Source: Chiloscyllium plagiosum (Eukaryota). Taken from it: a DNA stretch of 39,121 nt. The notes beneath the pieces are model-generated. The model did no database searches. It saw only the letters and a list, made by a program, of their open reading frames with translations, and was not told the origin of the DNA. The stretch spans positions 88,165,780-88,204,900 of the forward strand of contig NC_057718.1 of NCBI RefSeq assembly GCF_004010195.1. The letters run 5' to 3'. Within the stretch, counting starts at the first letter, position 1. Every line of letters starts with the position of its first letter. Positions 1,411 to 38,969 of this stretch are shown here, in pieces. Position numbers and translations under genes: made by a program.

Positions 1411-2966
1411 CCTACCATGCCATCTTCATTATGTGTTAACAAATTTGGGATTTTGTAATGAATATGTGAATAACAAACCCTAGTTCCCTCAGACAAACTT
1501 TGTCACTGCTAGTAAAGATTACTAGTTCTAATAAACCCTTACAATTAATCGATTTCCTGAGCTTTAAAAAATTTGGAGCAAAATACTTAACCCGGCAATA
1601 AGGTTCCCTGTCATATTACCTTTCAGTTGTGGTTGTGAGGATTTCACGGAACTGAGTTGGCAGTGGTTTCCTATCTCTTCTCTGCCACCCAATCCCACCA
1701 TCTTTTAATTCCTGCTATCCTGGAGGCTGATAAAGTTAGCAAAAGAAAGGAATACCTCCTTTCCCTGCTTGCCAAATTCCTAGCTTTATACTTTGTTACA
1801 TGCTACACACTGCCTCATGCACTCATCCATTTTCCCCTCACCAACCTCTACTCCTTTCATCCTTGACTCTCGCCCACTCAGCTGGTTGTCTCCAGCTTGT
1901 CTGCATGTGAGAGAGCTGGAATGGAGAGAATTGGTCATCAGTTTCTGAAAGTGGGCAGCCCCGCGATTGGTTGGTATTTAGTAAACTGTGACCTGTCAGT
2001 TTTACTCGTGGTCTCTCTGGTTGAGCTGTTTCCAACATTTCAAACAGCGTTGTGGGTTTCCAGACAGTCAGGTTGACATCAAATGAGAACTGTCAGTGGA
2101 AATGTAAAACTGACAGTTCTGGTTTTCTTCTTAGTTTGACTGGACAGAAAAACACGAAGTTGCCTGAAGGTTGGGTGTAACTATCAGTGAGACTGACAAG
2201 TTATTTTTAGAGTTGGGAGGCTGGAAACTAGAGTCCAGAAAGCAAATTTCCAAAATCTCAAAGTCAGATGTCCACCATTTGGCAGGAATTTCTCATTCCT
2301 AAAGTAAGAAATAGTTCTTAACGCGGCAAAAAAAACAAAGTACTGTAGCAATTCTGGGAACATCTGTCAAGAGAGAAACAGAATTAACATTTCGAGTCTG
2401 ATGATTCATCCTTCTTCTGAACTGTTGACAAAAGGGACAGAGCGGAACAATAAATGTGCTCCACAAGTAGTCCCAAAATATATAAAATCCCACTTCATCC
2501 ACCAAGATGACCAATTTACCTGACTGACTGCTATTCTGAATAAAAGCTACTCACACCAGGTTTCATCATTAACACAAAATAACTATATTTATTGTAGCAC
2601 TCTTCATTCTAACTAATGGTAGAGAAAAGAAAGTATTCTAAATCTACTACTAGATGACTTAACCAGACCCACTTTTAAAAAGATTTTTCATTTTGAAGAT
2701 AGGAGGAGGAAAGGGTAATTTGATACACATGGGTGGAGGATAAAGTGAACTCGGAACAAAATTCTGAAGATCAATGTCTAGATTATGAGTGGGTTACCTT
2801 GCCTTACACAGTTCCTTTTGATGTTTAGCATTTGTTGCATGTCGTATCTGTAAAACAATAGTTGATTCGGTGAACCTATATCTTTTCTTGGTAGAATTGT
2901 TTCTTTTAAGCTTTCTTGGTATTCTTGTATTTTCACCCAGTGTGGAAAGAGAGATGTTTTCAGATT

Positions 2967-3343
2967 GCACAGTGGCTCAGTGGTTAGCACTGCTGCCTCA
3001 CAGCGCCAGGGAACAGGTTTGACTCTAGGGTGACTGTCTGTGTAGAGTTTACACATTCTACCTGTGTCTGCGTGGGTTTCCTCAGGATGCACCGGTTTCT
3101 TCCCACAGTCCAAAGCTGTGCAGGTTAGGTGAATTGGTCATGTTAAATTGCCCATATTGTTCAAGGATGTGATAGCTAGGTGTGTAGGTTAGGTGCATTA
3201 GTCAGGGGACATGTAGAGCAATAGGGTAGGGGTAATGGGTCCGGGTGGGATACTCTTCGGAGGGTCACTGTGGACTTGTTGGGCCAAATGGCCTGTTTCC
3301 ACAATGTAGGGATTCTATGATGATTCTATAATGATGATGATGA
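2967..3343 (+). mobile_element. tRNA-derived SINE (HE1-like)
   Basis: A-box-like GTGGCTCAGTGGTTAG head, conserved body, CR1-like tail ending in GATTCTAT/ATG repeats; paralogues at 7568, 11169, 23228 and 34159. Confidence 0.85.
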
Positions 3344-3797
3344 AAGCACCGATGTCTCTGTCTCTGCCTGGCATCTTTAGATTTGTAGTAAACTGCAGTT
3401 CACCGAATCTGAGGGCTGTCACCATAGAGTCGTACAGCACAGAAACAGACCTTTTGGTCCAACCAACCCATGCTGACCATAATCCCAAACTAAACTAGTC
3501 CCACTTTCCTGTGCTTGGCTCAGTCTCTCTAGTCCTTTATGTACTTATCTATATGTCTTTTAAACCTAATAACTTCCTCTGGAAATGCATTCCATACATG
3601 AATCACTCTCTGTGTAAAAAAAATGCCCATGTCCTTCTTAAATCTTTCTACTCTCTGTTTAAAATTATGACCTCAGTCTTGAAAGCCCCCACCTCAGAGA
3701 AACATCTGCCATTCACCTTATCTACATTCCTCATAATTTTATAAGCCTCTATAAGGTCATCTTGCAACCTTCTACCCTCCAGTGAAAAAAGACCCAA

Positions 3798-3837
3798 GCA
3801 CTGATGATGTCGCCTAGCCAGGGGACGAAACGTTTGC
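3798..3837 (+). ncRNA. Minimal hammerhead ribozyme motif, second family
   Basis: GCA-CTGATGA-T-GTCgCCT agcc AGGgGAC-GAAA-CGTT-TGC; stem I GCA/TGC; GUU triplet. Confidence 0.75.
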
Positions 3838-3911
3838 AACAAAAACTTCCAGCTCGGCGAACAGAACCACAACAACGAGCACCCGAGCTACAAATCTTCG
3901 CACAAACTTTG
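3798..3911 (+). mobile_element. 114-bp Penelope terminal-repeat insertion with 9-bp TSD
   Basis: AAGACCCAA at 3789-3797 and 3912-3920; its 3' ~50 nt match the end of the RT-bearing element at 24918-25797. Confidence 0.85.
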
Positions 3912-4046
3912 AAGACCCAACCTATCCAGCCTCTCTTTATACTCAAACCCTCTCGCAAAATCGTGGTGTATCGGCTGAACCCTCTCCAGCTTAATATTCT
4001 GCCTGTAACATGGTGACCAAAACTGGACACAGTTCTCCAGAAGAGG

Positions 4047-4251
4047 AGAAAGTGAGGACTGCAGATGCTGGAGATCAGAGCTGAAAAATGTGTTGCTGGA
4101 AAAGCTCAGCAGGTCAGGCAGCATCCAAGGAGCAGGAGAATCGACGTTTCGGGCATAAGCCCTGAAGAAGGGCTCATGCCCGAAATGTCGGTTCTCCTGC
4201 TCCTTGGATGCTGCCTGACCTGCTGCGCTTTTCCAGCAACACATTTTTCTA
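4047..4251. mobile_element. Fold-back (palindromic) Penelope-like terminal-repeat insertion
   Basis: Inverted arms of ~80 bp around ~4165; TSD CTCCAGAAGAGG at 4035-4046 and 4252-4263. Confidence 0.85.
4162..4189 (+). ncRNA. Minimal hammerhead motif at the centre of a fold-back insertion (stem III CpG decayed)
   Basis: CTGAAGA-A-GGGC tcat GCCC-GAAA-TGTC. Confidence 0.65.
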
Positions 4252-4567
4252 CTCCAGAAGAGGCCTCATCACTTCTTGTACGACCTCAACATGACGTCCC
4301 AACTCCTATACTGAAAGATCTCAGCAATAAAGACAAGTGTTCTCAACACCTTCTTAGCCACCCTAGCTATATATGATGCAAACTTCAAAGAATTATGGAC
4401 TAGAACACCAAGTCTCTCTGCTCTACAATACTTCCCATGACCCTACTTTTAGTTGTATTCGTCCTGCTTTTGTTTGTTTTGCCAAAATACAATACTTCAA
4501 TTTATCCAAAATTAAACTCCATCTGCTGCTCAAGGTCTCTTTGTAATCTTAGATAACCTTCTTCACT

Positions 4568-4767
4568 CCCACCAAAAGAGAAAATGCTGGAAAATCTCAG
4601 CAGGTCTGGCAGCATCTGTAAGGTGAGAAAAGAGCTGACGTTTCGAGTCTAACTGACCCTCGAAATGTCAGCTCTTTTCTCACCTTACAGATGTTGCCAG
4701 ACCTGCTGAGATTTTCCAGCATTTTCTCTTTTGGTTTCAGATTCCAGCATCCGCAGTAATTTGCTTT
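4568..4767. mobile_element. Fold-back insertion of the U3-A8 family terminal repeat
   Basis: Near-perfect inverted arms ~4572-4645 and ~4658-4734; TSD TAACCTTCTTCACT at 4554-4567 and 4768-4781. Confidence 0.85.
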
Positions 4768-5541
4768 TAACCTTCTTCACTGTCCACCATACAACCAATC
4801 TTGGTGTCATCCACAAACTTACTAACAATGCCTTCTATATTCTCATCCAAATCATTTACATAAATGACAAACAAAAGTGGACCCAGCACCGGTCCCCATG
4901 GAACACTGCTGGCCACAGGTTTCCAGTCCAAAAAGCAACCATCACTCTCTGTCTCCTGCCATTAATCTAATTTTGGATCCAGTTGTGTGTGTGTGTGTAT
5001 ACATATATAGAGAGAAAGAGAGTACCAAGATTCTTGTAATCAAGGAAAGATTACCTGACATATATCCTTTACATATTCATACACAAGAATCTTGGTACCA
5101 TTCTGCCTGAAAGTATCCCCCTCACTGCTTTGCTTTGAAAAGCAATATTGTCATTTACAGCTAAAAGTATCCACCACTTGACCTTCCTAAATTGGAAATC
5201 CCTCCTGATATTTCAGCTATACAGGAGTGTCCAATTGCTATTCCAGTTTATAGTCCAAACAGGAAAAATACATTGTCCCATACACTTTAGGTTCTCCATG
5301 TTTCTGTTCTAGTTTTTGAATGCTCCTTTTTTCTATTAGTTATGACTTTAAATGCTTCAAGAAGTAACTTGTAACTTATTCTCTCTCTTTCCACACCTAC
5401 ATTTATAGCAAGTTTTAAGTATCACTTTTGCAGATGAGGGTTTAGTGAGGGGTCTGTTTCAAAAGAAGTTGTAAAATTCAGTAGTAACACTCCGGAGAAG
5501 ATCTAAATAAAAAGGTGAGAATCCAACCTAAATTATGTATA

Positions 5542-5866
5542 AAAGCAAATTCTGCCCTCTGCTTCTGCCCTCCCCTCTGCTTCACCCATCCCCCACATAT
5601 TTTGTCACATAGCACTGGCTTCAGCCTTGGTCATTCACAGCTCCTAATCTCTTTATAATCTCTTTATGCACTGTCATTATCACCTCTTTATTGCTACCTT
5701 TGCTTCTGGAGCCACGACTCACCTTCTCTCAGCCTAGTATTTCTCTATTTCTCCCTTTTTTTAGCTTTGACAAAGGGTCAGTTAGACTCGAAACGTCAGC
5801 TCTTTTCTCTCTTTACAGATGCTGCCAGACCTGCTGAAATTTTCCAGCATTTTCTCTCTTTGGGTT
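5542..5866 (+). mobile_element. Penelope-like terminal-repeat insertion (U3-A8 family)
   Basis: TSD CTAAATTATGTATA at 5528-5541 and 5867-5880; begins with a 10-nt inverted copy of the family 3' end (AAAGCAAATT). Confidence 0.8.
5763..5801 (+). ncRNA. Minimal hammerhead motif with U3-A8 core variant
   Basis: AGCT-TTGACAA-A-GGGTC agtta GACTC-GAAA-CGTC-AGCT; stems I and II pair fully. Confidence 0.7.
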
Positions 5867-6174
5867 CTAAATTATGTATATATTTGTGATGGTGTCAGTA
5901 TTTTAAGGACTTGTCTTTGATAGTCGCTGTTGTTTCTTTTTCATAATACATTTATACAGCTTTACGTTTTTTATTGAGTGTTTTTGACTGGACAAATGCA
6001 AAATTTGTAACCTCGTATTCTGCCTTGGTTGCAATTATTAATCTAGACCCCCTTCATTCACACATAGTTTTGTACCAGGAAGGGATGGATTTCTTGTAGT
6101 TGATTGACATCAGTTGATTCTCATTTGAGCATTGATCAGGTTGGCTAGCTCCCTGTTAGGTTAAGCAGGAGGCT

Positions 6175-6775
6175 AGCAGAACACAACAAGCCAGACAGCA
6201 TCAGGAGGTGGCAAAGGCAACATTTCGGGTAGAACGCTTCTTCAGGACTTGGGGTGAGTGTAAGGGGAGCTGCAGATAAAGGGGGTGGGGTTGGGGGTGA
6301 GATAGGAACAAGTTGAACACAGGTAGAGGGTATGACCTGATTGGTTGATGGGACGAATGAATCCAGCTGATAGCTGGAAGGAAGGGCCGGTGAGAGGAAT
6401 GGAAGGAAGGGGGCGGGGTTGGGAAGGAAGTCAGGGAATGGGAAGGGAGGTTATTTGAAACTGGAGAACTCAATGTCGGCTGCCCAGGCGGAAGACGAGG
6501 TGTTGTTCCTCCAATTTGCGGTTTGGTTCAATGTGGCAATGGAGGAGGCCAAGGGTGGCCATGTTGAAGAGGGAATGTGAAGGGGAATTAAAATGGACGG
6601 TGACTGGGAGGTCAGGTAGGCTGAGAAACTCGGCAAAACATGCTGAGTTTACATCTGGTCTCCCAGGCACCTTCCCCTGCAAACCATTCCCTTCAGCAAT
6701 CCTTGGTTGGTGCCAGTCTCCCCACCACTCCCCCCCCCCCCCCCTCGAACCTCCAGACACCTTCGCCTGCAACAT
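6175..6775 (-). mobile_element. Penelope-like (Neptune-type) fragment with GIY-YIG C-terminus and decayed hammerhead (6219-6245); short inverted piece at ~6660-6775
   Basis: LPVTVHFNSPSHS...LGLLHC...RKLEEQHLVFRLG on the minus strand, homologous to 15890-16110. Confidence 0.75.
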
Positions 6776-7567
6776 GTATCCAGTTAGGACATCCAGTTCA
6801 ACTGAGAAGTTGAATTCTGAATTGGTGTGAATAGGACTGAACTAGTCCTAGGAGGAGATGTCAGGACTCCTATGGCACAGTGCTAAAGCTCCTATATCTG
6901 AGTCTGGAAGCCTAGATTCATGTCCCACCTGCTCCCTAAATGTGTGAGATAACATCTTTGGAAAGGTTGATCAGAAAATATCCAAAAGGAGGTGTCAGTT
7001 TTCTTACTTTTGTGTTTCCTTAAGATCTTCTTATAAATCTAATTCTGGCCAGGTTTTGTTGTTCCCTCACTTTTCCAATATCTATGTAGTCTGGTGTCAA
7101 ATATTATTCGATAACACTACCATTAAGCATCTTGGAATGTTTTACAATGTTAATGGTTCCACATAAATGAAGTTGATTCTTGTTCAGTTAGGAGTCCTCA
7201 ACCTGAGTGTGCATTGCTGTTTGAAAACTGTCTTCTTCTACAAAATGTTTAATCACATAATTCTACACCAACTGTTTGTGGAATGAAGACAGAAATGAAA
7301 AGTAAAGTGTTTGCCTCCTCTCTCATTTTGTGTCTGGAATGCAGAATATTAAATTAGACTGCATGTGACTAATTGCTTTAAATGGTGAAACCCGTGATGT
7401 CTAATGCAGAATATTTCAAAAGACAAAGTTCGTATTAAAATGCTGAATCTGTCTTAAATGGCAGATTTCTCCAAGAATAGGATGGGATCTCTCTCTCTGC
7501 TCTGGTTTACAAGCATCTTGGAAAATGTTCATCTCTCATGAAGCTCATAATATAATTATTTCAGGGA

Positions 7568-7750
7568 ATCATAGAATCCCTACAGTGTGGAAACAGGCCA
7601 TTTTGGCCCAACAAGTCCACACCGACCCTCTAAAGAGTAACCCATTCAGATCTATTCCCCTACCCTAATATTTGCCCCTGACTAATGCATCTTGCCTACA
7701 CATCCCTGAACACTATGGGCAATTTAGCGTGGTCAATTCACCTAACTTGC
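7568..7750 (-). mobile_element. Partial HE1-like SINE (3' half)
   Basis: Reverse complement of the tail of the 2967-3343 SINE. Confidence 0.8.
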
Positions 7751-8007
7751 AGAAGGTATGGTACTCGAGGTCTTAAAATGCTTAAAGATAGATAAATGCT
7801 TGGGACCTGATCAAGTGTATTTCAGGACATTGTGGGGAGCTAGGGAAGAAATTATAGGCCCCCCGGGCAGAGATATTTATATTATCTACAGCCACAGGTG
7901 AGGTAATGGAGGATTGGAGCATGGCTAATATTGTGTCTTTACTTAAGTAAGGCTGCAAGAAAAAGCCAGGGAACTATAGATCAGTGCGCCTGATATCAGT
8001 GGTGGGT

Positions 8008-8175
8008 GAGAGTCGAAAAGTGTGGTGCTGGAAAGGCACAGCCGGTCAGGCAGTATTTGAGGAGCAGGTGAGTCGACTCTCCTGTTCCTCAGATGCTGCC
8101 TGATCTGCTGTGCTTTTCCAACACTGCACTTGTTGACTCTGATCTCCAGCATCTGCAGTCCTCACTTTCTCCTAG
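8008..8175. mobile_element. Fold-back Penelope-like insertion centred on GAGTCGACTC
   Basis: TSD TCAGTGGTGGGT at 7996-8007 and 8176-8187; inverted arms meet at 8074/8075. Confidence 0.85.
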
Positions 8176-8311
8176 TCAGTGGTGGGTAAGTGGTTGGAGG
8201 GGAGTCTGAGTGATAGGATTTATGTGCATTTGGAAAGGCATGGACTGGTTAGAGATAGTCAGCATGGCTTTGTGTGTGGGAAATTGTGTCTCATAAACTT
8301 GACTGAATTTC

Positions 8312-8339
8312 CTGATGAAGGGCTTTTGCCCGAAACGTC
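8312..8339 (+). ncRNA. Minimal hammerhead ribozyme motif
   Basis: CTGATGA-A-GGGC tttt GCCC-GAAA-CGTC at the 5' edge of a ~130 bp insertion into a CR1 fragment. Confidence 0.72.
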
Positions 8340-8599
8340 GACTCTCCTGCTTCTCGAATGCTGCCTGACCTGCTGTGCTATTCCAGCACCACACTCTTGA
8401 CTCTAATCTCCAGCATCTGCAGTCCTCAGTTTTGTTGAATTGTTTTGAGGATATGTCCAAGAAGGATATGAGGGCAGAGCAGGAGACGTTGTCTACATGG
8501 ACTTTATCAAGACCTTCAACAAAGTTCCGCATGGTAGACTGGTTTGTAAAGTTAGATCACGTGGGATCCTGAGTAAAAAATAATTTCTCATTTTTGTTC

Positions 8600-9135
8600 T
8601 AAGTGCCTTTCCCCCCCACAATTTGGAAACTGTATCCCAAGGTTGTAGATTCCCCAACCTGGAAATCATCTTACCTGCATCTACCTTGCCTATCCTTTAT
8701 ACATTTTGTAAATTTCAATTAGATCACCTCTCCTTTTTTGAAACAGTAGAGAATAAATATAGATCCAGTTTCCCCAATCTCTCTTCATTGGGCAGTTCTG
8801 CTATCCTGGGAACAAAACTATAATCTTTTTTGTACTGCTTCTGTGGCAATAATATTCTCCACAAGGTAAGACGACAAAAACTGCACATAGTACTCCAGGT
8901 GCAATCTAAACAAGGATCTAAACAACTGAAGTAAGACTTTGCTACTCATGTACTGAAATCCCCTTGTGATAAAGAATTACATACCAGGAACCTTCCTAAT
9001 TGCCTGATGAACTTGTGTGTTAGCCTCCAGTGATGCATTGACAAGGACACCCAAGTTCTTCTGTATATCTACACTTTCCAACCTCTCACCATTTCAGATA
9101 TAGTCTACACATTTCATCCTACCAAAATGGATAAC
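8600..9135 (-). mobile_element. Decayed CR1-like fragment
   Basis: aaaactgcacatagtactccagg and neighbouring motifs parallel the other minus-strand CR1 copies. Confidence 0.65.
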
Positions 9136-9171
9136 TAGTCTACCTAACCCTTTTAATACCTCTCATAAGTC

Positions 9172-9580
9172 AGCTGTGACTCAGTTCTGGTATTGCTGCC
9201 ACTGGGTCATGAGATTCTGGTCTCTAGTCCCACTCCAGTGCTTTAAAACAAGAATTAAGGATGGCATTCCAGCGCAGTGTCAGGGGTGCGGTCTTTCAGA
9301 TAAGGATGTTAAACTATGCTCCCTTCTGCCCTTTTAGGTTGATATAAAACATCCATTATTGCTATATTAAAATGGAGCAGTGGAATTATTCCCATTGTCT
9401 TGGCCAACTTCTATCCTTTAATTAACATCAGAAAATGATTTAGTAATCGTCATATTGTTGTTTATGAAAGCTCATTATTTGCAAGTGTACTGTTGTGTTT
9501 CCTACAATGAACATAGTTCACAGGTCGTTTAGCAACTTTTAAGCATTTTGTAAGATCCTATGATTGCAAAATTAAATAAG
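9172..9580 (+). mobile_element. Old Deu-domain SINE (SacSINE1/AmnSINE1-like)
   Basis: ggtgcggtctttcagat...gttaaac...tgtcttggccaa...tgtttcctaca pattern resembles the Deu core as recalled; related fragments at ~18640-18740 (-), ~24820-24900 (+) and ~34545-34815 (-). Confidence 0.6.
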
Positions 9581-10119
9581 TGCACTTTAAACAATATTTA
9601 AATGCTGCAGAGAAAATGCAGCACTAGAATACCAACTTCGACCAGTTACAAGGTAGTTTATGGTTTTGTAATTAAAAATAATCAGAATAGTTTGTGATAA
9701 AGCAGTATATATAATATGCAGTAGGAAGAATAACTGCCTCTGAAACTCAAGTTCCACCAGAATAATGCTGGGAAGTTTTAAGATTAATATAGACTAATGA
9801 ATCCACCACATTTTAAACAATTCTGAGGCTGACAACAGTTTGAAGCAGTTGCTTAGGATTTGAGAAGAATTGGTTGGTGCTGAGGCTAAGCTAGTGTAGG
9901 TCTCCTTTAACAGAATCAGGGGAGGCATTGTTGAGGGTAGAAGGTGTTGGCAGTATTGAATGGGTAGCTGAACACATGGGGATAGAATCACTGAGATCTA
10001 CAGCACAGAAAAAGGGCCTTTAGTCCATTGTTCCATGCCAGACAAAAAATCCAACTAATCCCATTTGCCAACATTTGGCCCATTTACTTGTGCACATGAG
10101 ATACCAAGACATACATCTA

Positions 10120-10990
10120 AATACTGCGTAAGATAGGTGGAGGGGCAGGTAGTATTGAGGCAGCAGGGAGCTGCAGAAAGATTTAGACAGGTTAGGAGTG
10201 TGGGCTAAGAATTGGCAGTTGAAACACAATGTGGGAAAGTGTGAGGTAGGAAGAAGAGGCATGGACTATTTTCTAAATGAGGAGAAAATTCAGAAATCTG
10301 AAGTACAAAGGGACTTGTGCGTCCTCGTACAGGATTCTTTTCAGGTTAGCTTGCAGGTTGAATTGATAATTAGGAAGGCAAATACAATGTTGTCATTCAT
10401 CTCGAGAGAACTAGAATATAAAAGCAGGGATGCACTGCTGAGACTTTATAAGGCTCTGGACAGACCACATTTAGAGTATTGTGAGCAATTTTGTGCCCCA
10501 TACTTCAGGAAGGATGTAATATCCCTGGAGTGGGTCCAGAGGAGGTTCACGAGAATGATCCCAATAATGTAAGGCTTAACATATGAGGAACGTTTGAGGA
10601 CTCTGGCACTATACGCGATGGAGTTTAGAAGGATGAGGAGGGATCTGATTGAAACTTACGGAGTACTGAATGGCCTGGACAGAGTGGATGTTGGAAGATG
10701 TTTCCATTGGCAGGAGAGATGAGGACCTGAGGGCACAGCCTTAGAGTAAAGGGAAGACCCTTTAGAATGGAGATAAGGAGAAGCTTTTTTAGCTAGAGTG
10801 GTGAATCTGAGGAGGCCAGGTCATTGAGTATTTTTAAGACAGAAATAGATATGTTCTTGATTACCAAGGGATCAAAGGTTTATGGGGAGAAAGTGTGAAA
10901 ATGGGTTTGAAAACTCTACCAACCATGATCCAATGGTGGAGCACACTCGATGGGCTAAATAGCCTAATTCCTGTTTCTATGGTCTTATTG
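10120..10990 (+). mobile_element. CR1-like LINE 3' end
   Basis: WAKNWQLKHNVGKCEV...[40 protein letters not shown]; tail ...gtttctatggtcttat. Confidence 0.9.
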
Positions 10991-10994
10991 ACTT

Positions 10995-11945
10995 CATATC
11001 ATTATGAAGTGAGATCCAGATTCCCATCATCCTCTGGGAAAAATATATATTCCTCACACCTCCTCTTAACCTTCCGCCCCTTAACTAATCTATGTCTCCG
11101 GTCATTGATCCATCCACCAAGGGAAAACAACTTTTCTTCCTGTCTATGCCACTTATAATTCTATATATGGGCAGCACAGTGGCTCAGTGGTTAGCACTGC
11201 TGCCTCACAGCACCAGGGTCCTGGGTTTGATTCCCACCTGTCTCTGTGGAGTTTTCACATTCTCCCTGTATCTGCTTGGGTTTCCTCTGAGTGCTCCGGT
11301 TTCCTCCCACAATCCAAAGATGTGCAGGTCAGGTGAATTGGCCTTGCTAAATTGCTCACAATGTTAGGTGTATTAGTCAGGGGTAAATAGCAGGTAGGGG
11401 AATGGGTTTGGGTGGGTTTCTCTTCAGAGGGGCAGTATGGACTTGTTGGGCCGAAGGGCCTGTTTCCATACTGTAGAGAATCTAATCATAGAATCTAATA
11501 TCTCAATCATGTCCTCCCTCAGTCTCCTCTGTTCATTGGAAGCAACACAAGTTTATCCTATCTCTCGTTGTGCGTAAACCTGTACAGCCCTGGCATCATC
11601 AAGGTAAATCTCCTCTGCACCACCTCCAGTGCAATCACGTCCCTCCTTTAATGTTGATTCTAGAACAAGGGTTTGTCCTTCCCCAACTGCACCACTTCAC
11701 ATTTATTCAGTTGAATTTCTTTTGCCACTATCAGCCTGTCTAAATCCTCCTGTAATCTCAGGCTATATTCAGGCTCACTGTCTACCACCCTTTTGTATCA
11801 GCTGTAAATTTCCTGATCAACCCGACGAAATTCAAGTGCAAATCATTTAGACAAACTGCAGACAGGAAGGGGCCACTGGACACAGGTTTCCGGTCACAAA
11901 AACATCCTTTAACCATCGCCCTCTGTTTCCGGCCACTCACCCAAT
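10995..11945 (-). mobile_element. Decayed CR1-like fragment abutting the promoter, split by a SINE
   Basis: Motifs parallel to the 3423-4985 copy (aaatctcctctgcac, atcatttagacaaa, ccactggacacagg). Confidence 0.6.
11169..11499 (+). mobile_element. HE1-like tRNA-derived SINE
   Basis: GGGCAGCACAGTGGCTCAGTGGTTAG head, B-box-like GGTTTGATTCC, GAATCTAAT tail repeats. Confidence 0.88.
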
Positions 11946-11949
11946 TCCC

Positions 11950-12500
11950 CTGGTGGTGGGCGTGACCAGGGGCTAGAGGGTGTGGTCACGGGCGGAGTTT
12001 GGGATTAGGGCGGGGTCAAGGTAGGGAATAGTGCGCGGACTTGAGGTTAGAGGGCGCGGAAAGGCGACGGAGGAGGCGCGGCTAAGTGCGAGAGGAGGAG
12101 GCGTGAATAAGGGCTGGTGTTGATGGCGGAGGGGAGGTCCAGCGGGCGGGACTAGGAGCGAGGGGGCGTGGCCAGAGGCGGGATGGGGGTGTGTCCACCG
12201 CTGAAGCGGCGGGAAATGGGGCCGGTTTAGTCTCGGGTGCGCAAGCTCGAGCTACTTCAGTTTTTTGTTCGCCGCGAGCTCGAGGTTGAACCATGTGGAT
12301 GTCGTTAGCAACGAGAGGCCGGGGGGCAGCGGCGGCGGTCACAGCCGGCGGAGTCACCTGGTGTGGGCTGCCGGCCGGCCTCCGGGGCTGTGCTCAACGG
12401 TTACCGGCCATCGGCATCAAGGATGAACTGGCACCGGGATCCGGTACCAGGGTGAAGAGGAGCGTTAGGTAAGCCTGGGACCTTTCCGGTGTGACCTGGG
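11950..12500 (+). promoter_or_regulatory. CpG island / TATA-less GC-box promoter of MTHFD1L
   Basis: The clearest non-repeat CpG-dense stretch; several Sp/KLF boxes (GGGCGGAG ~11990, GGGCGGGG ~12008, GGGGCGTGGC ~12163); overlaps exon 1. Confidence 0.85.
12293..12468 (+). CDS. MTHFD1L: MTHFD1L coding exon 1 (N-terminal mitochondrial presequence-like region)
   Basis: ATG in ACCATG context inside the CpG island; reads MWMSLATRGRGAAAAVTAGG...GTRVKRSVR; donor AG|GTAAGC at 12468/12469; its phase 2 matches exon 2. Confidence 0.85.
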
Positions 12501-13254
12501 GCAGAGGGACTGAGAGATGGCGGTTAGGGGGAAGTGTGAGGGGACCGCTTGAACGGTCTTCTCGGGTTGGGGAAGATCCCGGGATGGGGAAGCTGGAAGA
12601 TAGAGCCCGGGAGGAGGTGGGTGTTGGAATCTGGGGAGTAAAGATGGAAATTAAAAGGGGGTTAAAGAGAACCCGGTGAGGGAGTGAGAGGTGGTTTGCA
12701 GGGTTCTGGTGCTGGAGGAATGAGGGTCAAGTGGGTTTGGATGTGGCGAAGTGGGGGGGGTGTTTGAATGATTCTGGGTGTGCGGTAATACAGATTTAAA
12801 GGGGTTTTGGGTGTGTGGAGAAAGGGATCCGAGTGTGGGCTACAGTGAAGTGTTAAAGGACTCTGGGGCAATGGCGAGAGAGGCTCAGGTGAGGAGAGGA
12901 TGTTTCAAGGAGCCTGGGAGAGAGTGGTTTAAAGGTGCATGCTGGATAGGGAGAAGGCAGTTTAAGGGATCTGTGCATTAGAAGAGGCTGGGTTAAAGGG
13001 AACTGGGGAAAGGGAAGAAAGGAGGTTCCAGCAGCCCAGAATGGCAAGAGAAGAACACTAAAAGGTCCTGGGCGGATGGTGGGCAAAGAGTGTGGAGGCT
13101 TTTTAGTGGGTGAGAACAAAGCATTAAAAGATTCCACATGGTGGTAAGGAGGTGGTTAAAGGAATTCCATCGGGCAGGTATGGTTAGGAGATTGTGTGAT
13201 AGACAAAAGAGCAAGCTGTGACATGAATGTAGAGGATGTGAACAGTGAGTGGGC

Positions 13255-13800
13255 AACAATGTGATGTCATTGAGAGAAGTGTGAAGTCAGCCACTTTGGA
13301 TGGAAAAATAGCAAAGCACTTTTTTTTAAATTGTGAAAGACTAGGAAATGCTGGTACTCAAAGGAACTTTGGTGGTCCTTTTGTATGAAGTTAACACGCA
13401 GGTATGACGACCCATTAAGAAAGAGTGAAGAAGACTTCCTGCAGTTGCATTTGGGTTTGGTGAGACCATACCTATAGAATTGTGCACAATCTTGACCTTT
13501 AAAGTAGAAAATATTTCTGTTAGAGGGAGTGTAACAGATATTCACTGGATTGCATCTTAGAATGGATCGCCTAGAATGAGCTGTTTCCACATTTAGGACT
13601 CAGATGTGTAAGCAAACGTTGGCATTCCCAAGGCAAAGAACACTGTCATTGAGAAGTTTGTGGAGTTTGGAATAGAGGGATAAAGGGATATTGAGGGAAA
13701 GTGGAATTGAGGAAGAAGACCAGCTGTGATTGCATTGAATGTGGTGTAGGTATGAAGGAGCAAATAGTCTACTCCTGGCTTATGTTTCTTATGCTCTTAC
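13255..13800 (+). mobile_element. Decayed CR1-like 3' fragment
   Basis: gagaagtgtgaagt...ggtgagaccatacctatagaattgtgcacaat...tatgtttcttatg, collinear with 10120-10990. Confidence 0.65.
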
Positions 13801-13834
13801 ATTAAGATGGCTCAGGGAAGTGGAAGGGAACATT

Positions 13835-14022
13835 CTCCTCCAAGTCCCCCCTCCCTACCTTTTATCTTCTCCTGCTGAACACTCTCTGCTCATTCCTGAA
13901 GAAGGGCCTGTGCCCGAAACGTCGAATCTCCTGTTCCCTGGATGCTGCCTGACCTGCTGTGCTGTTCCAGCAATAAAGTTTCAACTTTGATCTCCAGCAT
14001 CTGCAGTCCTCACTTTCTCCTC
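13835..14022 (+). mobile_element. Penelope-like terminal-repeat insertion with intact hammerhead
   Basis: Family tail ...ctgcagtcctcactttctcc; flanking GAACATT at 13828-13834 and 14023-14029. Confidence 0.8.
13892..13927 (+). ncRNA. Intact minimal hammerhead motif, sense strand of MTHFD1L intron 1
   Basis: ATTC-CTGAAGA-A-GGGC ctgt GCCC-GAAA-CGTC-GAAT; 4-bp stem I, GUC triplet. Confidence 0.78.
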
Positions 14023-14653
14023 GAACATTTTAAAAGGGTCCTGGGAAGATAGTGTGTTGGAATGGAAATGTTAAAAAGCTGCTGGGATAGTAGGAAGGAT
14101 GTTTAGGAGTAGATAAGAGTTAAAAGGGTGTAGCGACTGAGTTAATTAGTGGAATTAAGAACAGAAAGGCTATCGAGGTCAGGACATGATTTAAAGGAGT
14201 CCAGGAAAAGGTTGTAGAGATCTGCAGAAGAACAGAGCGATGAAAGGGGAACCAAGAAGTGAAAGAGATCTGAGGGAAGAAAGAGCAGGTTTAAAGGGGA
14301 GTGAGTCTGGAGCCATGGGTAAGAGGGGAGGATTTGAGTTCCCATGCAAAGATCCTTGGTCAGTCTGATGCAGAGAGTGAAATCAATGCTGATTATTGAT
14401 GCATGATTTCTTGCTTATGTGGAAGGGGTTAAGCAGAATTTAGATTGAATGTCTTTCACAGAGGAATAGCTGACCTATTTCTTGTAGATGAAGAATCACG
14501 AGTGCAAAAAGATTCTTCAACATTGCTTCTACCACATTCTTTTGGATCCAGTGGAACAAGCATTTAGTTTCCTCCTTGAAGTTGGCTTCACAATCATTCA
14601 GACAAAATCAACTTTTGATAGACTAGGCAGGTGTTTTCTCAACTCTCAAAAAG

Positions 14654-16419
14654 GAGAAAGTGAGGAGTGCAGATGCTGGAGACCAGAGTTGAAAAGTGTG
14701 GAGCTGGAAAAGCACATCAGGCCAGGCAGCTTCCGAAAGCAGGAGAGTCGACGTTTCTGGCATACACCCTTCTTAAGGAATGAGGCTGGTGTGCCAAGCG
14801 GGCTGAGATAAAAGGTGGGGGGGATTTGTGGGAGGGGCGCTGGGAATATGATAGGTGGAAGGAGGTGAAGGTGATGGGCTGGAGAAGGGGTGGGGGCAGA
14901 GAGGTCGGGAATAAGATTGCAGGTCAGGGTCCCAATAAGGAAGAATAGGTGTTCTTCATCCAGGCATTGAGTGGCTAGGGTTTGGTGATGGAGGAGGCCC
15001 AGGACCTGCATGTGTTTGGCAGAGTGGGAGGTTGTCCTAGAAATGATTTGCCAGTTGGCGTCTTGTCTCCCCAATGTAGAGGAGACCACATCAGATACAA
15101 CAGATGCAGCAGATGACGTGTGTGGTAGGACAGGTACATTTCTGTCAGATATTGAAGGATGGTTTGGGGCCTTGGATGGAGGTGAGGAGGGAGGTTTGGG
15201 CGCAGGTTTTGAACTTCATGCAATGGCAGGGGAAGGTGCCAGGAGGGGAGGGTGGGTTGGTGGGGGGCATGAACCTAACAAGGGAGGCACAGAAAGAATG
15301 GCCTCTCCAAAATGCAGATAGAGATGGGGAGGGAAATATATAGCTGGTAGTGGAGTCTGTTTGTTGTTGGAAAAGGCAGAAGATGATGTAGTGTATCTGG
15401 AGATTGGTGGGGTGGAAGGTCAGGACCTTGTTGCGGTTGGAGAGGTAGGGTTCAAGGGCGGAGGTACGGGAAGTGGAGGAGATGAGGTGGAAAGTGCAGG
15501 AAGTGGAGGAGATCCCATATTCCCAATTCCTTCGCGTCCGCCGCATCTGCTCCCAAGAGGACCAATCCCACTACCGAACAGCCCAAATGGCCTCCTTCAA
15601 AGACCGCAATTTCCCCTCTGACGTGGTCGATGATGCACTTCACTGCATCTCCTCCACTTCCTGCACCTCTTCCCTTTAACTCCGCCACTCCAATTGCCAC
15701 CAGGACAGAACCCCACTGGTCCTCACCTTCCACCCCACCAACCTCCGGATACATTGTATCATCCTCCATCATTTCTGCTACCTCCAAACAGACTCCACCA
15801 CCAGGGATATATTTCCCACCCCTATCAGGGTTCCGGAGAGACCACTCCCTCCGTGACACCCTCGTCAGGTCCACACACCACCTACTTGCAGAACGTTTCA
15901 GGGAACACCTCTGGGACACCCGCACCAACCAACCCAACTGCCCTGTGGCTGAACACTTTAACTCCCCCTCTCACTCCGCCAAGGACATGCAGGTCCTTGT
16001 CCTCCTCCATCACCAGACCCTGGCCACACGACGCCTGGAGGAAGAGCGCCTCATCTTCCGCCTAGGAACCCTCCAACCACATGGGATGAATGTAGATTTC
16101 TCCAGTTTCCTCATTTCCACTCCCCCCACCTTATCTCAGTCCCAACCCCTGAATTCAGCACCGTTCTCTTGACCTGCAATCTTCTTCCCAACCTTTCTGC
16201 CCCCACCCCCTCTCCGGCCTATCACCCTCGCCCTCACCTCCTTCCACCTATCGTATTCTCAGCCCCCCTCCCCCAAATTCCCTCCCCACCTTTTATCTCA
16301 GCCCGCTTGGCACACCAGCCTCATTCCTGAAGAAGGGCTAATGCCCAAAACGTCGATTCTCCTGCTCCTCAGATGCTGCCTGCCTGCTGTGTTTTTCCAG
16401 CACCACACTTTTCAACTCC
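14654..16419. mobile_element. 1.77-kb inverted two-arm Penelope-like (Neptune-type) element: minus arm 14654-~15512, plus arm ~15513-16419
   Basis: IPYSQFLRVRRICSQ (RT C-terminus) and LAERFREHL...PVAEHFNSPSHS...RRLEEERLIFRLGTLQPHGMNVDF (GIY-YIG C-terminus); decayed hammerheads at ~14750-14777 (-) and 16327-16354 (+); TSD ACTCTCAAAAAG at 14642-14653 and 16420-16431. Confidence 0.88.
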
Positions 16420-16597
16420 ACTCTCAAAAAGTCAACATTCCAGGCAAAGTGGAAGAAATGCTCCAGAGATACTTTGAAGGTCTTTTTGGAGGATTGGGGC
16501 ACTGATTTTAATGATTGGAAGAAGTTTACCATTCAAAGTAGTGATAATTTGACCACTTAAGTGCCATGATGTTTTCAGTCTCAAAATCTTAATGATG

Positions 16598-18200
16598 TGG
16601 AGACAGTAAGGTCTGCAGATGTTGGAAATGAGAGTTGAGAGTGCGTTGCTGGAAAAGCACAGCAGGTCAGGCAGCATCCGAGGAGCAGGAAAATCGACTT
16701 TTCGGTCTGGAGCCCTTCATCAAGAAAGGAAACGAAGCAGACCAAATCGTCTAAACTGTCCAAAGGGGTTGTTCCCTCTGTGATACACTGGTCCAAACCT
16801 GTGTCACTCTAATGATTCCTCTCCCTCCCAGAGCATCTTCCCATGCAATCACAGAAAATGTAACACTGGGCTTTTTATCTTCTCTCACTGTCCAAGGCAT
16901 TGCAGCACCTTTTGGCAAAGCTGTAGTTTACTTGTACTTCATTCAATATAGGCAACTGTTTTCACACTAGAGCCTCATCTTCATTGTGTAGACCAAATGC
17001 ATACTGAATGAACACCTTGCAGAACATCTCCACTCAGTCTGCATGCAGAATTCTCACCTTCTGCTTGCTTAGCATTTCAATAAAGAGTGGTTGCAAACAA
17101 GGAATGAAAAGGAAGCAGACCAAAGTGACTGTTGACCATCAGTGTTTCAGAGGAGTTCTGTCTGTGACACTGCTTCACCCCTCTATCACCCTATCAACTC
17201 CTCTCCCTCCCAGATTGCTCTTGTGCTTACATTTCTATACTAAGAATGACTGATGCACTATTCCAGTGGAGCTCATCCCAACTCAAGGAACAGCTCCTCA
17301 ACATTGAGTTCAACAAATTCAGACCGTGAAACATGTCCTCTATTGTGTATTTTCTTTCTCTAGTGTCTGTATCTTGTTTTTGTGTTCTCGCTTTGTCAGA
17401 GCTGACTTATAGTCTATTAACATCTACACTGGACCATTGCTTTTTGTTCTTTATAATCATATTTGCTCCAATTGTCTTTTGTTCTAGATATCTGATTCCT
17501 AAATTCCTTGCCGTGTAACTTTTCTCTGACTGTCTCTCTTTCACCATTACCTCGTCAGTGTGGTAGGCCCAGTGGGGAAAGATGGCACCTGAGGATTGAC
17601 GACTTTGTTAGTTGTGTCCAGTGCTGATGATGGCAGAAGGACATCGCAGTGACATTGAGACAGGCCAAGCAGTGAGAGATGCAACTCTGATGTGGGTTGG
17701 TCTGGTGCAGGCAGTGGCAAGGTGGCGGCGGAGGAGTATCAGCCCAGCTCTAAATGATGGTGCCTGAAGATCGACAACTTCATTGGTTGGGTCTGGTGTA
17801 GACGACAGCGAAGTGGTTGAGGAAGGATGGTGGTGCAAGCCTCTTTGCTGATAAACTGACTCAGTACTGATGGACTGTCTTTAAGCTTTTTTTTTAAATT
17901 CTTATTCTTTAATTATTCAAAATGGTGACAGATTGTGGTGACAAATGAAAGCTTCTTAGTGTATTTTATTGTATTCTTGCTGTAAAATTCACATGACAAT
18001 AAAATCATTTATCATTTTATCTCCATCTTTCTCCAACAGCATAAACTCTCATTATTTTTCCAACCCCCTCAGTGCTTCAGAGAAGTCATATTGGACTCCA
18101 TGTTAACTCTGTACTTCCAAATAAATTTGTTGGACTGTAACCTAGTGTTGTGATTTTTAACTTTGTCCATCCCAGTCCAACACCAACACCTCTACATCTG
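16598..18200. mobile_element. Cluster of decayed Penelope-like fragments (16598-16725 minus; ~16770-18110 plus, interrupted) with an unclassified retroposon at ~17560-18015
   Basis: Similarity to the 14654-16419 arms; the insert ends in ATGACAATAAAATCATTTATCATT. Confidence 0.5.
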
Positions 18201-23227: not shown

Positions 23228-23440
23228 GGGCAGCAATGTGGCTCAGTGGTTAGCACGGCTGCCTTACAGCACCAGGAACCCGGGTTCGATTCCAGCCTCA
23301 AGCGACTGTCTGTGCGGACACATTCTTTCTGTATCTGTGAGGGTTTCTTCCCACAATCCAAAGATGTGCATGTTAAATTGCCTATGGTGGATTTGATGTG
23401 CCAAATGCCTGCTTCCACACTGTGGATTTTATGATTCTAG
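23228..23440 (+). mobile_element. Internally deleted HE1-like SINE
   Basis: GTGGCTCAGTGGTTAG A-box and GGTTCGATTCC B-box; ATGATTCTA tail. Confidence 0.8.
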
Positions 23441-24270: not shown

Positions 24271-24917
24271 CTCTCTGTCTCTCTTCCTCATTGCTGCCAT
24301 TTTTGTCACTACTCTCTCCCAGCTACTTTTTCCTTGAGTAGGTTTCTGATCCTGCAATTCACCAAGTTAAATTCTTCGCTAGTTTGCTACTGGCCTTATA
24401 ATTCCTCCAGCTGGTAGCTAAGAAGGTGCAGCTCCTCAATGCTCCTGGGTTGATTCCTGACCAATGCCAACAAGGAGCAGGATGCTTCTTGATCTGCTGT
24501 GCTTTTCCAGTGCCACACTTTTTGACTCTGATCTCCAGCATCTGCAGTCTTCACTTTCTCCCAATTCAAACAAGACCGCTTCCTGACTTACCAATCAGTG
24601 AGAAAGCTTTTCCCATCCTCCATGCCGAAGATGTTTAAATCACTGATGTCAAGATTATGCATGCAACCATGCAAATAAGAAAGTAATTGGCAAGGTCCTC
24701 ACAGTGTGATCCAAGACACTCATATTGCCAACCAGAAAACAGACTTGCCTTAGTTTTGTTGACTACACATTGTCAGATAAGTGACTTTTGTATCTACACT
24801 ATTAGTTCAATAAGGCAGATAGTTGTGGGTTCAGATCCCCCTCCAAAGATTTGAGCACAAGAATATAAACCGGCTCCAGCATTGTGCTGAAGGAATGCTC
24901 CTTTATTAGAGAAGCAA

Positions 24918-25797
24918 TTCAAAGTTTGTGAGAAGATTTGTAGCTCGGGTGCTCGTTGCTGTGGTTCGTGTCGTTTCGTGTTTTGTGCAGTCCTTGCATG
25001 GGATTTTGTACACTACATTAGTTTTTCTCATGCTGGGTATCGGGTCCTTCGTCCTGGTGAGTTGTTGTCTGAAAGTGGCTATTGGTTTGTGTTCTGTTAT
25101 AAGTCCTAGTGGTCGCAGTCGTCTGGCTGTCAGTTCAGAGATGTTCTTGATGTATGGTAGTGTGGCTAGTCCTTTGGGTTGCGGCATGTCCTCGTTCTGT
25201 TGTCTTTCCCTTAGGCGTCTGTTGATGAAATTGCGAGGATATCTGTTTTTGGCGAATACCTTGTATAGGTGTTCCTCTTCCTCTTTTTGCAGTTCTGGTG
25301 TGCTGCAGTGTGTTGTGGCCCTTTTGAATAGTGTCTTGATGCAACTTCGTTTGTGTGTATTGGGATGGTTGCTTTCATAGTTCAGGATTTGGTCTGTGTG
25401 TGTGGCTTTCCTGTGTACCTTAGTGGTGAATTCTCTGTACCCTCGCGTCTAGGAATGGGAGTTGGTTGTCCTTTTCTTCCTCTCTCGTGAATCGGATTCC
25501 TGTGTGTGGAGTTGATGATCCGGTGTGTTTTCTCTATTTCCGTGTTTTTAATGATTACAAAGTTTGGGTTGAATTTGTGGTAAGACTGTTTGTTCTAACC
25601 TTTGCATTACTGCTTCTGCTATGAATCCTGAGATCGGTGAGCCCATGGGTGTTCCGTTGATTTGTTCGTATATCTGGTTGTTGAATGTGAAGTGTGTTGT
25701 GAGGCACAAGTCCAGTAGTTTAAGTATGCCGTCTTTGTTGATGGGTTCAACGTCCTGTTGTCTGTTATGTCTGTTCAGCAGGTTGGCTATTGTTTCT
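24918..25797 (-). mobile_element. Penelope (Poseidon-type) element fragment: RT C-terminal half, start of GIY-YIG, terminal-repeat end
   Basis: Minus strand QIYEQINGTPMGSPISGFIAEAVMQRLE...LPYIKNISELTARRLRPLG...KTNVVYKIPCKDC; end shared with 3863-3913. Confidence 0.9.
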
Positions 25798-27809: not shown

Positions 27810-28037
27810 CCCCAACAAAAAGAGATGTTGCTGAAAAAGCTGAGCAGGTCTGGCAGCATCTGCGAAGAGAAATCACAGTTAGCATTTTAGGTTAGGTCCA
27901 GAACAGTTCTGAGGAAGGGTCACCAAACCCGAAACATTAACTCTGATTTCTCTTCACAGATGTTGCCAGACCTGCTGAGTTTTACCAGCAACTTCTAAAT
28001 TTGCCCCTGATTTACAGCATCTGCAGTTGTTTTAGTT
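27810..28037. mobile_element. Fold-back Penelope-like insertion
   Basis: Inverted arms around ~27890-27930; TSD TTTGTTGATTTT at 27798-27809 and 28038-28049. Confidence 0.8.
27905..27942 (+). ncRNA. Minimal hammerhead motif, another family (stem III decayed)
   Basis: AGTT-CTGAGGA-A-GGGT caccaa ACCC-GAAA-CATT-AACT; stem I AGTT/AACT. Confidence 0.65.
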
Positions 28038-31000
28038 TTTGTTGATTTTATGCTGTGAATGTTTTTAAATGGTTAAAAATGCAGAAAGAGGATATCCAAG
28101 ATGGTGGTGATCTAAGAAGATCGCACTGCAGACCTCCGCAACGCAGCACAAGTGGGACGAACCTTCAACCTGTCCAACCCGAACCATCGTGATATCTTGG
28201 GACTCCGGAAAGATCTGGAGTCCCAAGAAACTTCTAAAAGTTATCTTACCTGCGTTTCCAGCCATCCAGAGATGCTGATAAAGGGAGGAGTGTCCAAGGC
28301 TGGCCTGTGGCCCAGCCTGCAGGATCCTCTGAGTCGATTACTTTCCAGGCCCTGGTGAACGAGCTTGTGAAATCTCAAGCGATGCTGGGGAAACAGATTA
28401 AAGAGAAGCTGGCTCCAATCTCTCTCATGCTGCAGAAGCATGAGCAGCAGCTGGGAGACCTGAAGAAGAGGACAGATGAGGTGAAGCACAGGGTCATAGT
28501 GGTGGAAGCTGATGCCAGTTCATCCAAAGATAGAATCCAAGCCCTAGAGACGCAGGTTCGTAATTTGCGCAACCAAGTGGATGATCTTGAGAATAGGGGC
28601 AGGAGAAAAAAAATTCAGATCATTGGTCTGCCTGAGGGTAAGGAAGATGAGCGGCCTGTGGAATTTATTGAGGATTAGCTGCTGAAATTCCTTGACTTGG
28701 AGGCTGGCATGAGAGGATTGAAGATAGAGGGGGCTCATCGGGTCACAGCGTGGAGATTGGGTCTGGGTCATCGTCCTCTTCTAGTGCGGTTCCATCATTA
28801 CTGGGATAAGGAGAGTGTCATGGAAGCTTCCAGAATCCAGGGGGCTCTATGATCATGTTCTTTCAGGACCTTTCAGCGGCAGTGATCCAGAAACGAAAAT
28901 CTTGCGTTGGTGTCAAGAGAAAACTGAGGGAGCTTGGGATTCAGTACTCCGAGGTATCTGGCGATGCTTCAGATCACCTTAGATGGATCCATACGTCTGA
29001 GAAGACAAGAGACTTTGTGGACAAATTAACCTAATTTGAACAATTTTAGTATGTATAAATGTTGTTTGGGTATGTCTTTATCGTTTTGTAAAAGGAACGG
29101 AGCAAGTCTGGTTGTAGCTTTAATTTTCTATTTTTTTTCTATTGATAGGAAAAAAATATTGATAGTTTAAACCAAATTATGTTTGGCGGTGGTTGAGATG
29201 TACATTTTCACTTTCTAAGTTAGGATGTACCAAAGGATGGGTGGGGTATTCCTTTTTTTAAAAAAATGTTTTATTCATATTGGTATTCTATGGTGTGTTT
29301 ACTTTTTTTTCTTCTGCTTGTGTTTATGGTGTGGCTCTAGCTGGGAGAAGTGAAGGTGGCTGGGATGTTTAAATGCCTACTTTTGGGTAGTTTGGGATAG
29401 GTAGTTGCCGCCTCTGGGCAGAGGGTGAGTTCCCCCACTCAGCACTGTTAGCACTTTTTATGTTGATAGGTATTTTTTGTTTTTGTTTTTAATTTTTAAT
29501 AGTTTTGTAGGTTTGTTAAATCTAGTGATTTTAGTTTTTGTAGCTTTTATACTTGGTGGATCATGTGGCACTAAGGCTCAGCGATTTGTGGTTCGGGTTC
29601 CTCCTTTCTGGAATCTAAATGTTATTGCAGAAGGTTATGGCTAATGACTTGATTAAATGGTGTACCTGGAATATCAAGGGAAATCACTCTCCAATTTAAC
29701 GGAAGAAGGTAATCTTGAGCCTTAGAAAGGAAAAGGTGGATATTGCCTTGTTACAAGAGACCACTTAGATGACAAGGAGCATCTGAAATTACAGCAGAAT
29801 GGTTTTAACCAAGTTTATTTTTCATCATTTAATACCAGAAGTAGGGGAGTGGCTATATTGGTTAGGAAGAATCTCCCATTTAAGTTGTTAATGTGTTAAA
29901 AACACATACGGGAGGTTTGTAATTCTTAAAGCCTTGATAAATGGGGAAGAATATGGTGTTTTAAATACTTATTGACCTCCAGCTCATTCCCTTAAATTTT
30001 TGGTAGATGCTTTTTCTAAACTGGTAAGTCTCAAGTCCCGGCACATCATTATGGGGGAGATTTTAACTGTCTCATGTATCCCACAGTAGACAGGTTGCCC
30101 AATGGTCCCTCGGTACAAACTAAGCAGTTAGTGGATATGTGTGGGGAGTCAGGGTTGGTGGACGTCTGGAGGCATCTCCACCCTACAGGCAGGGATTTTA
30201 CGTTTTTCTCCGATCCGCACAGATGTCACACTAGGTTTATTTTGGACCCCTGCGGTAATCTTGGATTTGGTGGCATGTTGTACGATTGGTAATATTACCA
30301 TCTTTGATCATGCTCCAGTGTACGTTATGATTAAGGACGTTTACAATGGGTTCAAGGCACTGCCGAATGTATCCCTTTATCCTTGAGGATAATAAGTTTG
30401 TGGAATATTTCTCTCAGGAATTTTGGGCATTCCTAGACATCAACTTTAGGCTCGGTTTGTAGTTCATCTGTCCTCTGGGAAACTGCCAAAGCCTATGCTA
30501 GGGGGTTAGTTATTTCTTACTCTGCCAGTAGGAAGTGGCAGAAGGGGGAGAAGCATGGTTGAAGGCAGCCGAGAAGGCTTACTTTGACTAGACCCTCGTT
30601 GGTCAAACTATAGAGGATTACAGCGCTGCGGTCTGCTTTGAATTCTGTGCTCATGCAGATGGCAAAGAAGAAGCTGGCTTTTGCAAAGCAAAGATTATAT
30701 GATCACGGTGACAAGCCAGGCAAATACTTAGTGTATCTCGCCAGGAAAAGGAGTGCCCACAAGTCATTACAGCAATTAGAGAAGGGTCTGGGAGCCTAAC
30801 ATGTGATTCTAAAAAGATTAATATGGCGTTAGAGATTTTACTCTAAGTTATAACAATCCGACGATTGTGAGGAGGCACAGGCCAAAATTGAATCTTTCTT
30901 TAAGGATCTGAAGCTCCCAGGCGTGACTCCTGAACAAGAGTCCTTTCTGAATATCCCCTTATCAGAGCAAGAAGTGCAGGAAGCTGTGAGGCAACTTCAG

Positions 31001-38965: not shown

Positions 38966-38969
38966 CTTC

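Follow-up and report, generated by a model that had tools for sequence, protein, structure and literature searches.

A hammerhead motif with a U3–A8 core pair in a Penelope-like end fragment of Chiloscyllium plagiosum, likely the norm of an abundant subfamily

The window analyzed here is a stretch of 39,121 nucleotides from Chiloscyllium plagiosum, in which a hammerhead motif of 39 bases lies on the plus strand at 5763–5801. As read from the sequence and with a motif descriptor, its layout is that of a minimal type-I hammerhead, an architecture described in the part of PMC4209133 that was available. Helix I consists of 4 bp between AGCT at 5763–5766 and AGCT at 5798–5801. The core reads TTGACAA (5767–5773), where position 3 is T5767 (U3), position 8 is A5772 (A8), and N7 is C. 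According to the descriptor, one extra nucleotide, A5774, follows the core. Helix II (5 bp, 5775–5779 with 5785–5789) has one G–U pair and a 5-nt loop, and it includes the G10.1–C11.1 pair (G5775–C5789), which was also obtained by folding. The GAAA box occupies 5790–5793. The palindrome ACGT at 5793–5796 (15.2–16.2), also a feature of the hammerheads in PMC4209133, requires a second molecule for the formation of helix III, as in our dimer model. The GTC triplet is at 5795–5797, and cleavage is predicted after C5797. The motif thus has the sequence features of the minimal hammerheads of Penelope-like elements (PLEs), namely the core boxes with U3–A8, an NUH triplet, the extra nucleotide, and G10.1–C11.1 with helix II, as well as a short helix I, the lack of helix III, and the palindromic 15.2–16.2. 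An earlier note, made from the sequence alone, had described the TTGACAA core with both stems, the GAAA box, and the GUC triplet intact, and both the sequence and the descriptor agree. It had also held that CUGANGA searches would miss the motif, and the strict descriptor indeed does.

A relaxed descriptor allowing C or U at position 3 and G or A at position 8 matched the window four times and had no match in 100 random sequences (first-order Markov, of window length and like composition). The hammerhead likeness of 5763–5801 is beyond chance. The hammerhead families of Rfam have the same catalytic core layout, but none scored the motif at the gathering score (release 15). No hammerhead model appeared at E values up to 10 either, where the single match (E 9.7) was a chance one. 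The folding z-score of the 39-mer was only −1.77, and 8 of 200 shuffles were equally stable.

The motif belongs to an insert at 5542–5866 flanked by identical 14-mers, which form the left (5528–5541) and right (5867–5880) target-site duplications (TSDs). The clean 14-bp TSD of the earlier note is therefore confirmed; among 5000 random control positions, 3 showed a similar 14-mer repeat. At the left end lies an inverted 12-nt piece of the family 3′ tail (5540–5551, minus strand), the exact reverse complement of 4758–4769, which shares 2 nt with the left TSD. The upstream part of the terminal repeat (pLTR-like; 5552–5762, plus strand) is multi-copy from about 5568. It carries private substitutions at 5652, 5653, 5664, and 5715 and private indels at 5740–5744, and it had no significant similarity to seven other upstream regions of the window. 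Downstream of the hammerhead, the 3′ part of the terminal-repeat module (5802–5866, plus strand) stops ~30 nt before the tail end seen at 4769.

A near-identical relative without the core had also been pointed out, and it is indeed present, with an extent of 4554–4789. It is a head-to-head pair with its own TSD of ~21 bp (left copy, 4554–4574; right copy, 4768–4789, with one mismatch and one indel). The inverted arm (4572–4660, minus strand), which is of the same subfamily, starts at the equivalent of 5774, truncated immediately 3′ of the core, and is 95.6% identical to 5774–5863 over 90 columns. The forward arm (4659–4769, plus strand), again of the same subfamily, begins inside helix II and retains the full tail. 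The two arms overlap by 2 nt and are identical to each other at 75 of 77 positions. Because neither arm holds the core, the relative cannot show the core of the family.

As described in the available parts of PMC8557442, PMC3846280, and PMC11167929, the insertion units of endonuclease-positive PLEs consist of a pLTR, an optional tail of 30–40 bp, an adjacent inverted truncated copy, and a TSD. The junctions at our locus present the same set of features: a terminal-repeat fragment, the optional tail, an adjacent inverted piece, and a TSD. The insert resembles these units in being a 5′-truncated end fragment with a tail at one end only, a head-to-head inverted piece, a TSD, and an AT-rich site. 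Unlike them, it contains no ORF, and its inverted piece is only ~12 nt long. A tandem non-LTR retrozyme, which by the criterion given in a preprint requires complete hammerheads in two or more successive tandem units (bioRxiv 10.64898/2026.07.22.740005), was rejected, as 5542–5866 is a single dispersed copy with a TSD.

The link to PLEs comes from a neighboring locus. A Penelope-like ORF 3′ remnant, followed by a terminal repeat with a C3–G8 hammerhead (core at 16327), lies at 15486–16430 on the plus strand. Residues 110–205 of this ORF showed 57–76% identity to three carpet-shark proteins from Chiloscyllium, Rhincodon, and Stegostoma, the three matches among 130 candidates. All three homologues gave a C-terminal GIY-YIG match (E 0.002 or better, one above the curated cut-off) and two of them an RVT_1 match (below cut-off), an arrangement that, judging from these matches, corresponds to the PLE domain order. 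Pfam detected nothing in this ORF fragment, and Pfam and PDB searches with the ORF fragments of the window gave nothing usable; a protein atlas gave a GIY-YIG lead only (score 0.94; family in 23% of members). The module at 5763–5866 was identical to the ORF-linked repeat at 16320–16430 at 56 of 75 positions, and none of 500 shuffles was as good. A second ORF-linked copy (14660–14785) also passed the shuffle test, and a third (6150–6250) failed it, with 16 of 500 shuffles as good. The module is thus homologous to the hammerhead repeat behind a Penelope-like RT/GIY-YIG ORF remnant, and 15486–16430 represents a sister family, not the parent, of the U3–A8 insert. The window contains no autonomous parent with a U3–A8 core in its own pLTR. 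The exact helix II-to-helix I stretch was found 0 times in metagenome, viral, and prokaryote contig collections, and a core-neutral degenerate motif 0 times in the metagenome and prokaryote ones. Two more stretches, 6150–6560 and 14646–15570 (both minus strand; cores at 6245 and 14777), each combine the 3′ remnant of a Penelope-like ORF with a hammerhead-bearing terminal repeat behind it, and the second is arranged head to head with the 15486–16430 remnant.

In total, 15 core-bearing loci of this repeat superfamily were found in the window, including that at 5767. The other 14 comprise 12 with C3–G8, one with U3–G8 (16723, minus strand), and one with a broken junction (32259/32262), and A8 occurs at 5772 alone. 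In an alignment, 13 other core-bearing copies are in register with the motif at 5763–5801 but have helices I and II of different sequence; the other 14 loci are members of other subfamilies, with their own helices. Palindromic pairs of end fragments that carry hammerheads of other subfamilies, arranged head to head, were seen at 4078–4254, ~27816–28030, ~32207–32390, and ~8013–8176. Two copies of a young C3–G8 subfamily (263–413 and 38969–39119) are 97% complementary over 151 nt, and their helix I has just 2 bp and a mismatch.

Several other repeats occur in the window. Copies of one dispersed repeat are found at 2962–3317, 11169–11484, 23228–23318, and 34273–34482, and it resembles the shark HE1 SINE. 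A perfect 16-bp inverted repeat (5022–5037 and 5083–5098) surrounds 45 nt beside a (GT)n/(TA)n microsatellite and is possibly a tiny DNA-transposon derivative. A 180-aa open frame at 24906–25448 (minus strand), for which Pfam gave no meaningful match, resembles the RT–endonuclease linker of another Penelope/Poseidon-type element. The frame at 28238–28678 (plus strand) had only generic coiled-coil Pfam matches below cut-off and that at 10159–10572 (plus strand) had none; the former resembles the coiled coil of a LINE ORF1 and the latter the remnant of a CR1-type RT.

The state of positions 3 and 8 among relatives was analyzed with four of 24 listed public runs, from three organisms, aligned to 5400–6000 at 85% likeness with differences listed from 5%. 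These were X1 (organism A, DNA contigs, 12,349 aligned), X14 (organism B, 11,962 contigs), X18 (organism C, 1,580 contigs), and X21 (organism A, 394 raw RNA reads). The pile-up is confined to the subfamily similar to this copy throughout the motif, and its letters are counted per position, not per copy. The summed depth over 5757–5777 was 89,244 in X1, 72,822 in X14, 7,025 in X18, and about 30 reads in X21. In X1, the unique flanks had a depth of ~7, compared with the 89,244 over 5757–5777, which suggests on the order of 10^4 copies, the depth being contig-weighted and not a copy number. The X1 depth dropped from 89,000–255,000 over the ribozyme to 3,000–18,000 upstream (5736–5798), so that the majority of copies seem to start directly before the hammerhead; part of the upstream dip is caused by the indels of this copy at 5740–5744. 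In X14, the depth over 5757–5777 was about one-ninth of that of the next bin, indicating that most relatives were clipped before the core. One X14 contig matched the right junction and flank (5839–6000) with 0 other letters and 11 gaps; this hints that the insertion at 5542–5866 may be older than the split of organisms A and B, from a contig with only 28 letters on the element side and a left flank without X14 depth.

No difference at 5767 or 5772 was present among the 40 of 64 differences listed for the four runs. The change-type tallies of each run reconcile with the listed differences and narrow the remainder. In X1 and X18, all changes from A are placed elsewhere, so that each other letter is below 5% at 5772. 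In X14, all changes from T are placed (T>C, eight of eight), so that each other letter is below 5% at 5767. The C>T changes are fully placed in X1 and X18, which leaves no CpG-type decay of at least 5% at 5771; the true CpGs at 5789/90 and 5794/95 showed 7–19% decay in X1. The earlier caveat that G8A could be CpG decay in this copy thus loses its footing in these two runs. Beyond the differences listed, the tallies held changes from T in X1 (one T>C, two T>A) and X18 (three T>C), a single A>G in X14, and both types in X21 (six A>G, three T>C). The lowest best share among those listed was 10.9%, so the remaining ones are probably smaller, if the ranking rule is as we infer. Among the differences listed, there was no majority change between 5757 and 5811. 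Elsewhere, the aligner reported private changes of this copy at 5652/53, 5664, 5715, 5838, and 5858, and it carried mismatches that were adjacent or near an end at 5652/53, 5838/39, and 5856/58.

The effect of clipping was simulated with families that had a divergence of 4% and, on each strand, a CpG decay of 15%; their sequences were cut into pieces of 33–150 nt and aligned locally. The 24 settings combined four scoring schemes and three seed lengths, and the families were either left whole or truncated directly 5′ of helix I, at 900 pieces per setting. The simulation used indel-free fragments rather than assembly contigs, and its aligner may differ from that of the pile-up. A simulated C3–G8 family showed 85–95% C at 5767 and 60–77% G at 5772 in all 24 settings, and a simulated U3–A8 family 3–4% C and 1–2% G, respectively. 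The real tables agree with the simulated U3–A8 family. Taken together, the pile-up, the tallies, and the simulations indicate that U3–A8 likely predominates in a high-copy subfamily. U3–A8 is thus likely the norm of an abundant, probably shark, subfamily and probably not a decay private to this copy. The earlier suggestion that U3 and A8 may be fixed in the family is supported, as the two letters, counted per position, look fixed together.

The compensatory exchange of C3–G8 for U3–A8 in hammerheads is textbook knowledge. Natural U3–A8 cores were reported in 2011 (Perreault et al., PMC3088659), and ~1,300 minimal hammerheads of Schistosoma mansoni Cercyon PLEs were retrieved with a U3–A8 descriptor (Cervera and De la Pena 2014, PMC4209133). 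In view of these two papers, novelty of the core variant is not supported. In Fig. S3 of PMC4209133, as far as available, two Schistosoma families have U3–A8, one Saccoglossus entry has U3–G8, and the vertebrate entries have C3–G8; its text includes no cartilaginous fish. The available part of a 2026 preprint on animal retrozymes includes one chondrichthyan and lacks the words “core” and “covariation” (bioRxiv 10.64898/2026.07.22.740005). Within the available parts of the literature searched on U3–A8 and C3–G8 hammerheads, “U3–A8” was named in PMC4209133 only. No report of a shark U3–A8 hammerhead family was found there, and one may exist; in the review that linked hammerheads with the word “shark”, the word describes their shape. 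What is new here is only the vertebrate instance of U3–A8, the swap itself having been published from flatworms.

The available part of PMC4209133 allows a comparison with the Cercyon hammerheads. The motif at 5763–5801 shares with them the core swap, the extra nucleotide between 9 and 10.1, the G10.1–C11.1 pair, the palindromic 15.2–16.2, the short helix I, and the occurrence mostly as solo dispersed copies. It differs from them in its vertebrate host, the 5-bp helix II, C at N7, and a rough abundance on the order of 10^4. With the natural U3–A8 cores of PMC3088659, it has in common the compensatory change at positions 3 and 8 in a natural hammerhead. Unlike those examples, several in number and without a PLE tie in the available part of that source, the motif has no helix III of its own, so that a partner would be required.

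Here, we propose that 5763–5801 is a minimal type-I motif in a TSD-flanked, likely retrotransposed PLE end fragment, whose U3–A8 pair was likely inherited from the master of an abundant subfamily and not acquired at this locus; we regard this account as probable. A PLE RT/GIY-YIG protein would have nicked an AT-rich site and copied the RNA from the tail region, stopping ~210 nt upstream of the ribozyme, and the insertion would have left the 14-bp duplication. In a tandem parent transcript, two motifs may pair via their ACGU palindromes to form helix III and exchange their helix I strands. U3–A8 would then take the place of C3–G8 as the tertiary Watson–Crick pair, and cleavage after C17 (5797) may proceed slowly, perhaps assisted by protein. 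The window contains no core-bearing partner of the same subfamily for 5763–5801, and the solo copy is probably inert. As to activity, hammerheads covariant at 3–8 are stated in the available part of PMC3088659 to be proven active in vitro. In a PLE hammerhead, single C3G or G8C mutants were dead and the double mutant was partly rescued, according to the available part of PMC11167929.

Folding models bear on a possible origin of the swap. In the secondary-structure model, an off-pathway helix dominates the fold of the monomer, and with C7, A1.1, and G1.2, the whole of a C3–G8 core would be able to pair with the cleavage strand. The dimer minimum was computed to lie 14.6 kcal/mol below the active-dimer model for C3–G8 versus 6.5 kcal/mol for U3–A8, which ranks fourth of 64 contexts. 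Native C3–G8 copies gave gaps of 5–16 in five with intact helices II and III and larger ones in four decayed copies. Relief of misfolding is a weak explanation of the swap, because the swap narrows the computed gap in most of the 64 contexts (median 4.8), the gaps of other C3–G8 copies are as large, and the Acropora Neptune PLE family keeps C3–G8 with the same C7, A1.1, and G1.2 (PMC4209133, available part of the supplement). It is conceivable, though doubtful, that several shark species carry a high-copy PLE subfamily with a rebuilt active-site pair. The C7–G8 CpG of its master would have decayed to A8, and a C3-to-U change would have restored the pair, dissolving a 6-bp off-pathway helix between 3–8 and 15.2–1.2.

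The same fixed pair could also be catalytically irrelevant, an explanation that we consider unlikely. A master whose core was weakened or dead may have been amplified in trans or without cleavage, and the changes may have hitchhiked, or the motif may have been retained because it binds protein or marks a transcription boundary. In the available part of PMC11167929, hammerhead mutations had no effect on the insertion of an anole PLE in vitro, for which cleavage was not needed, and no RNA-seq reads started or ended at the cut site. PLE minimal hammerheads cleave weakly in vitro, even as dimers (PMC4209133, available part). Our RNA run X21 likewise had no accumulation of read starts or ends at any position, including 5797/5798, and no reads on the unique flanks of this locus; as ~2% of a poly(A) single-cell run, it is ill suited and a weak test. 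The two changes are both transitions, and a CpG could have been the origin of G8A if N7 was C. Against irrelevance, the two changed positions are exactly the two that pair, one of the 15 possible pairs among the six conserved CUGANGA letters (a post hoc count), while the remaining core letters, the GAAA box, the palindrome, and both helices are intact. The same swap also recurs in the Schistosoma PLE families of PMC4209133, as far as that source was available.

Far less plausible is a reading in which the family consensus is C3–G8 and two independent decay changes in this copy (C>T at 5767 and, in a CpG, G>A at 5772) re-paired by chance. It could draw on the at least six private substitutions elsewhere in the copy, on C at N7, which would place G8 in a CpG, and on the predominance of C3–G8 among the other core-bearing loci of the window (12 of 14), with a single change in the U3–G8 locus at 16723. 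However, those 14 loci represent different subfamilies with different helices, and the pile-up showed neither a C3 or G8 majority nor CpG-type C>T at 5771 in X1 or X18. This reading is largely refuted by the pile-up, the change tallies, and the clipping simulation. A chance match in repeat DNA, to which the lack of an Rfam hammerhead score and the modest folding z-score might point, has a negligible probability and is refuted by the aligned family, given the in-register copies with differing helices I and II, the empty random windows, and the match to the published consensus save at positions 3 and 8 (PMC4209133, available part).

Our preferred account, that of a U3–A8 pair inherited from the master of an abundant PLE subfamily, extends the U3–A8 variant to an abundant vertebrate subfamily. 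Because strict CUGANGA searches and Rfam miss this subfamily, hammerheads in shark genomes are undercounted. That an entire subfamily carries a compensatory change in its active site suggests indirectly that the fold is important for the element. If the active-site pair was indeed rebuilt, it would provide natural evidence for selection on hammerhead cleavage during PLE mobilization in vivo, even though cleavage is dispensable for insertion in vitro.
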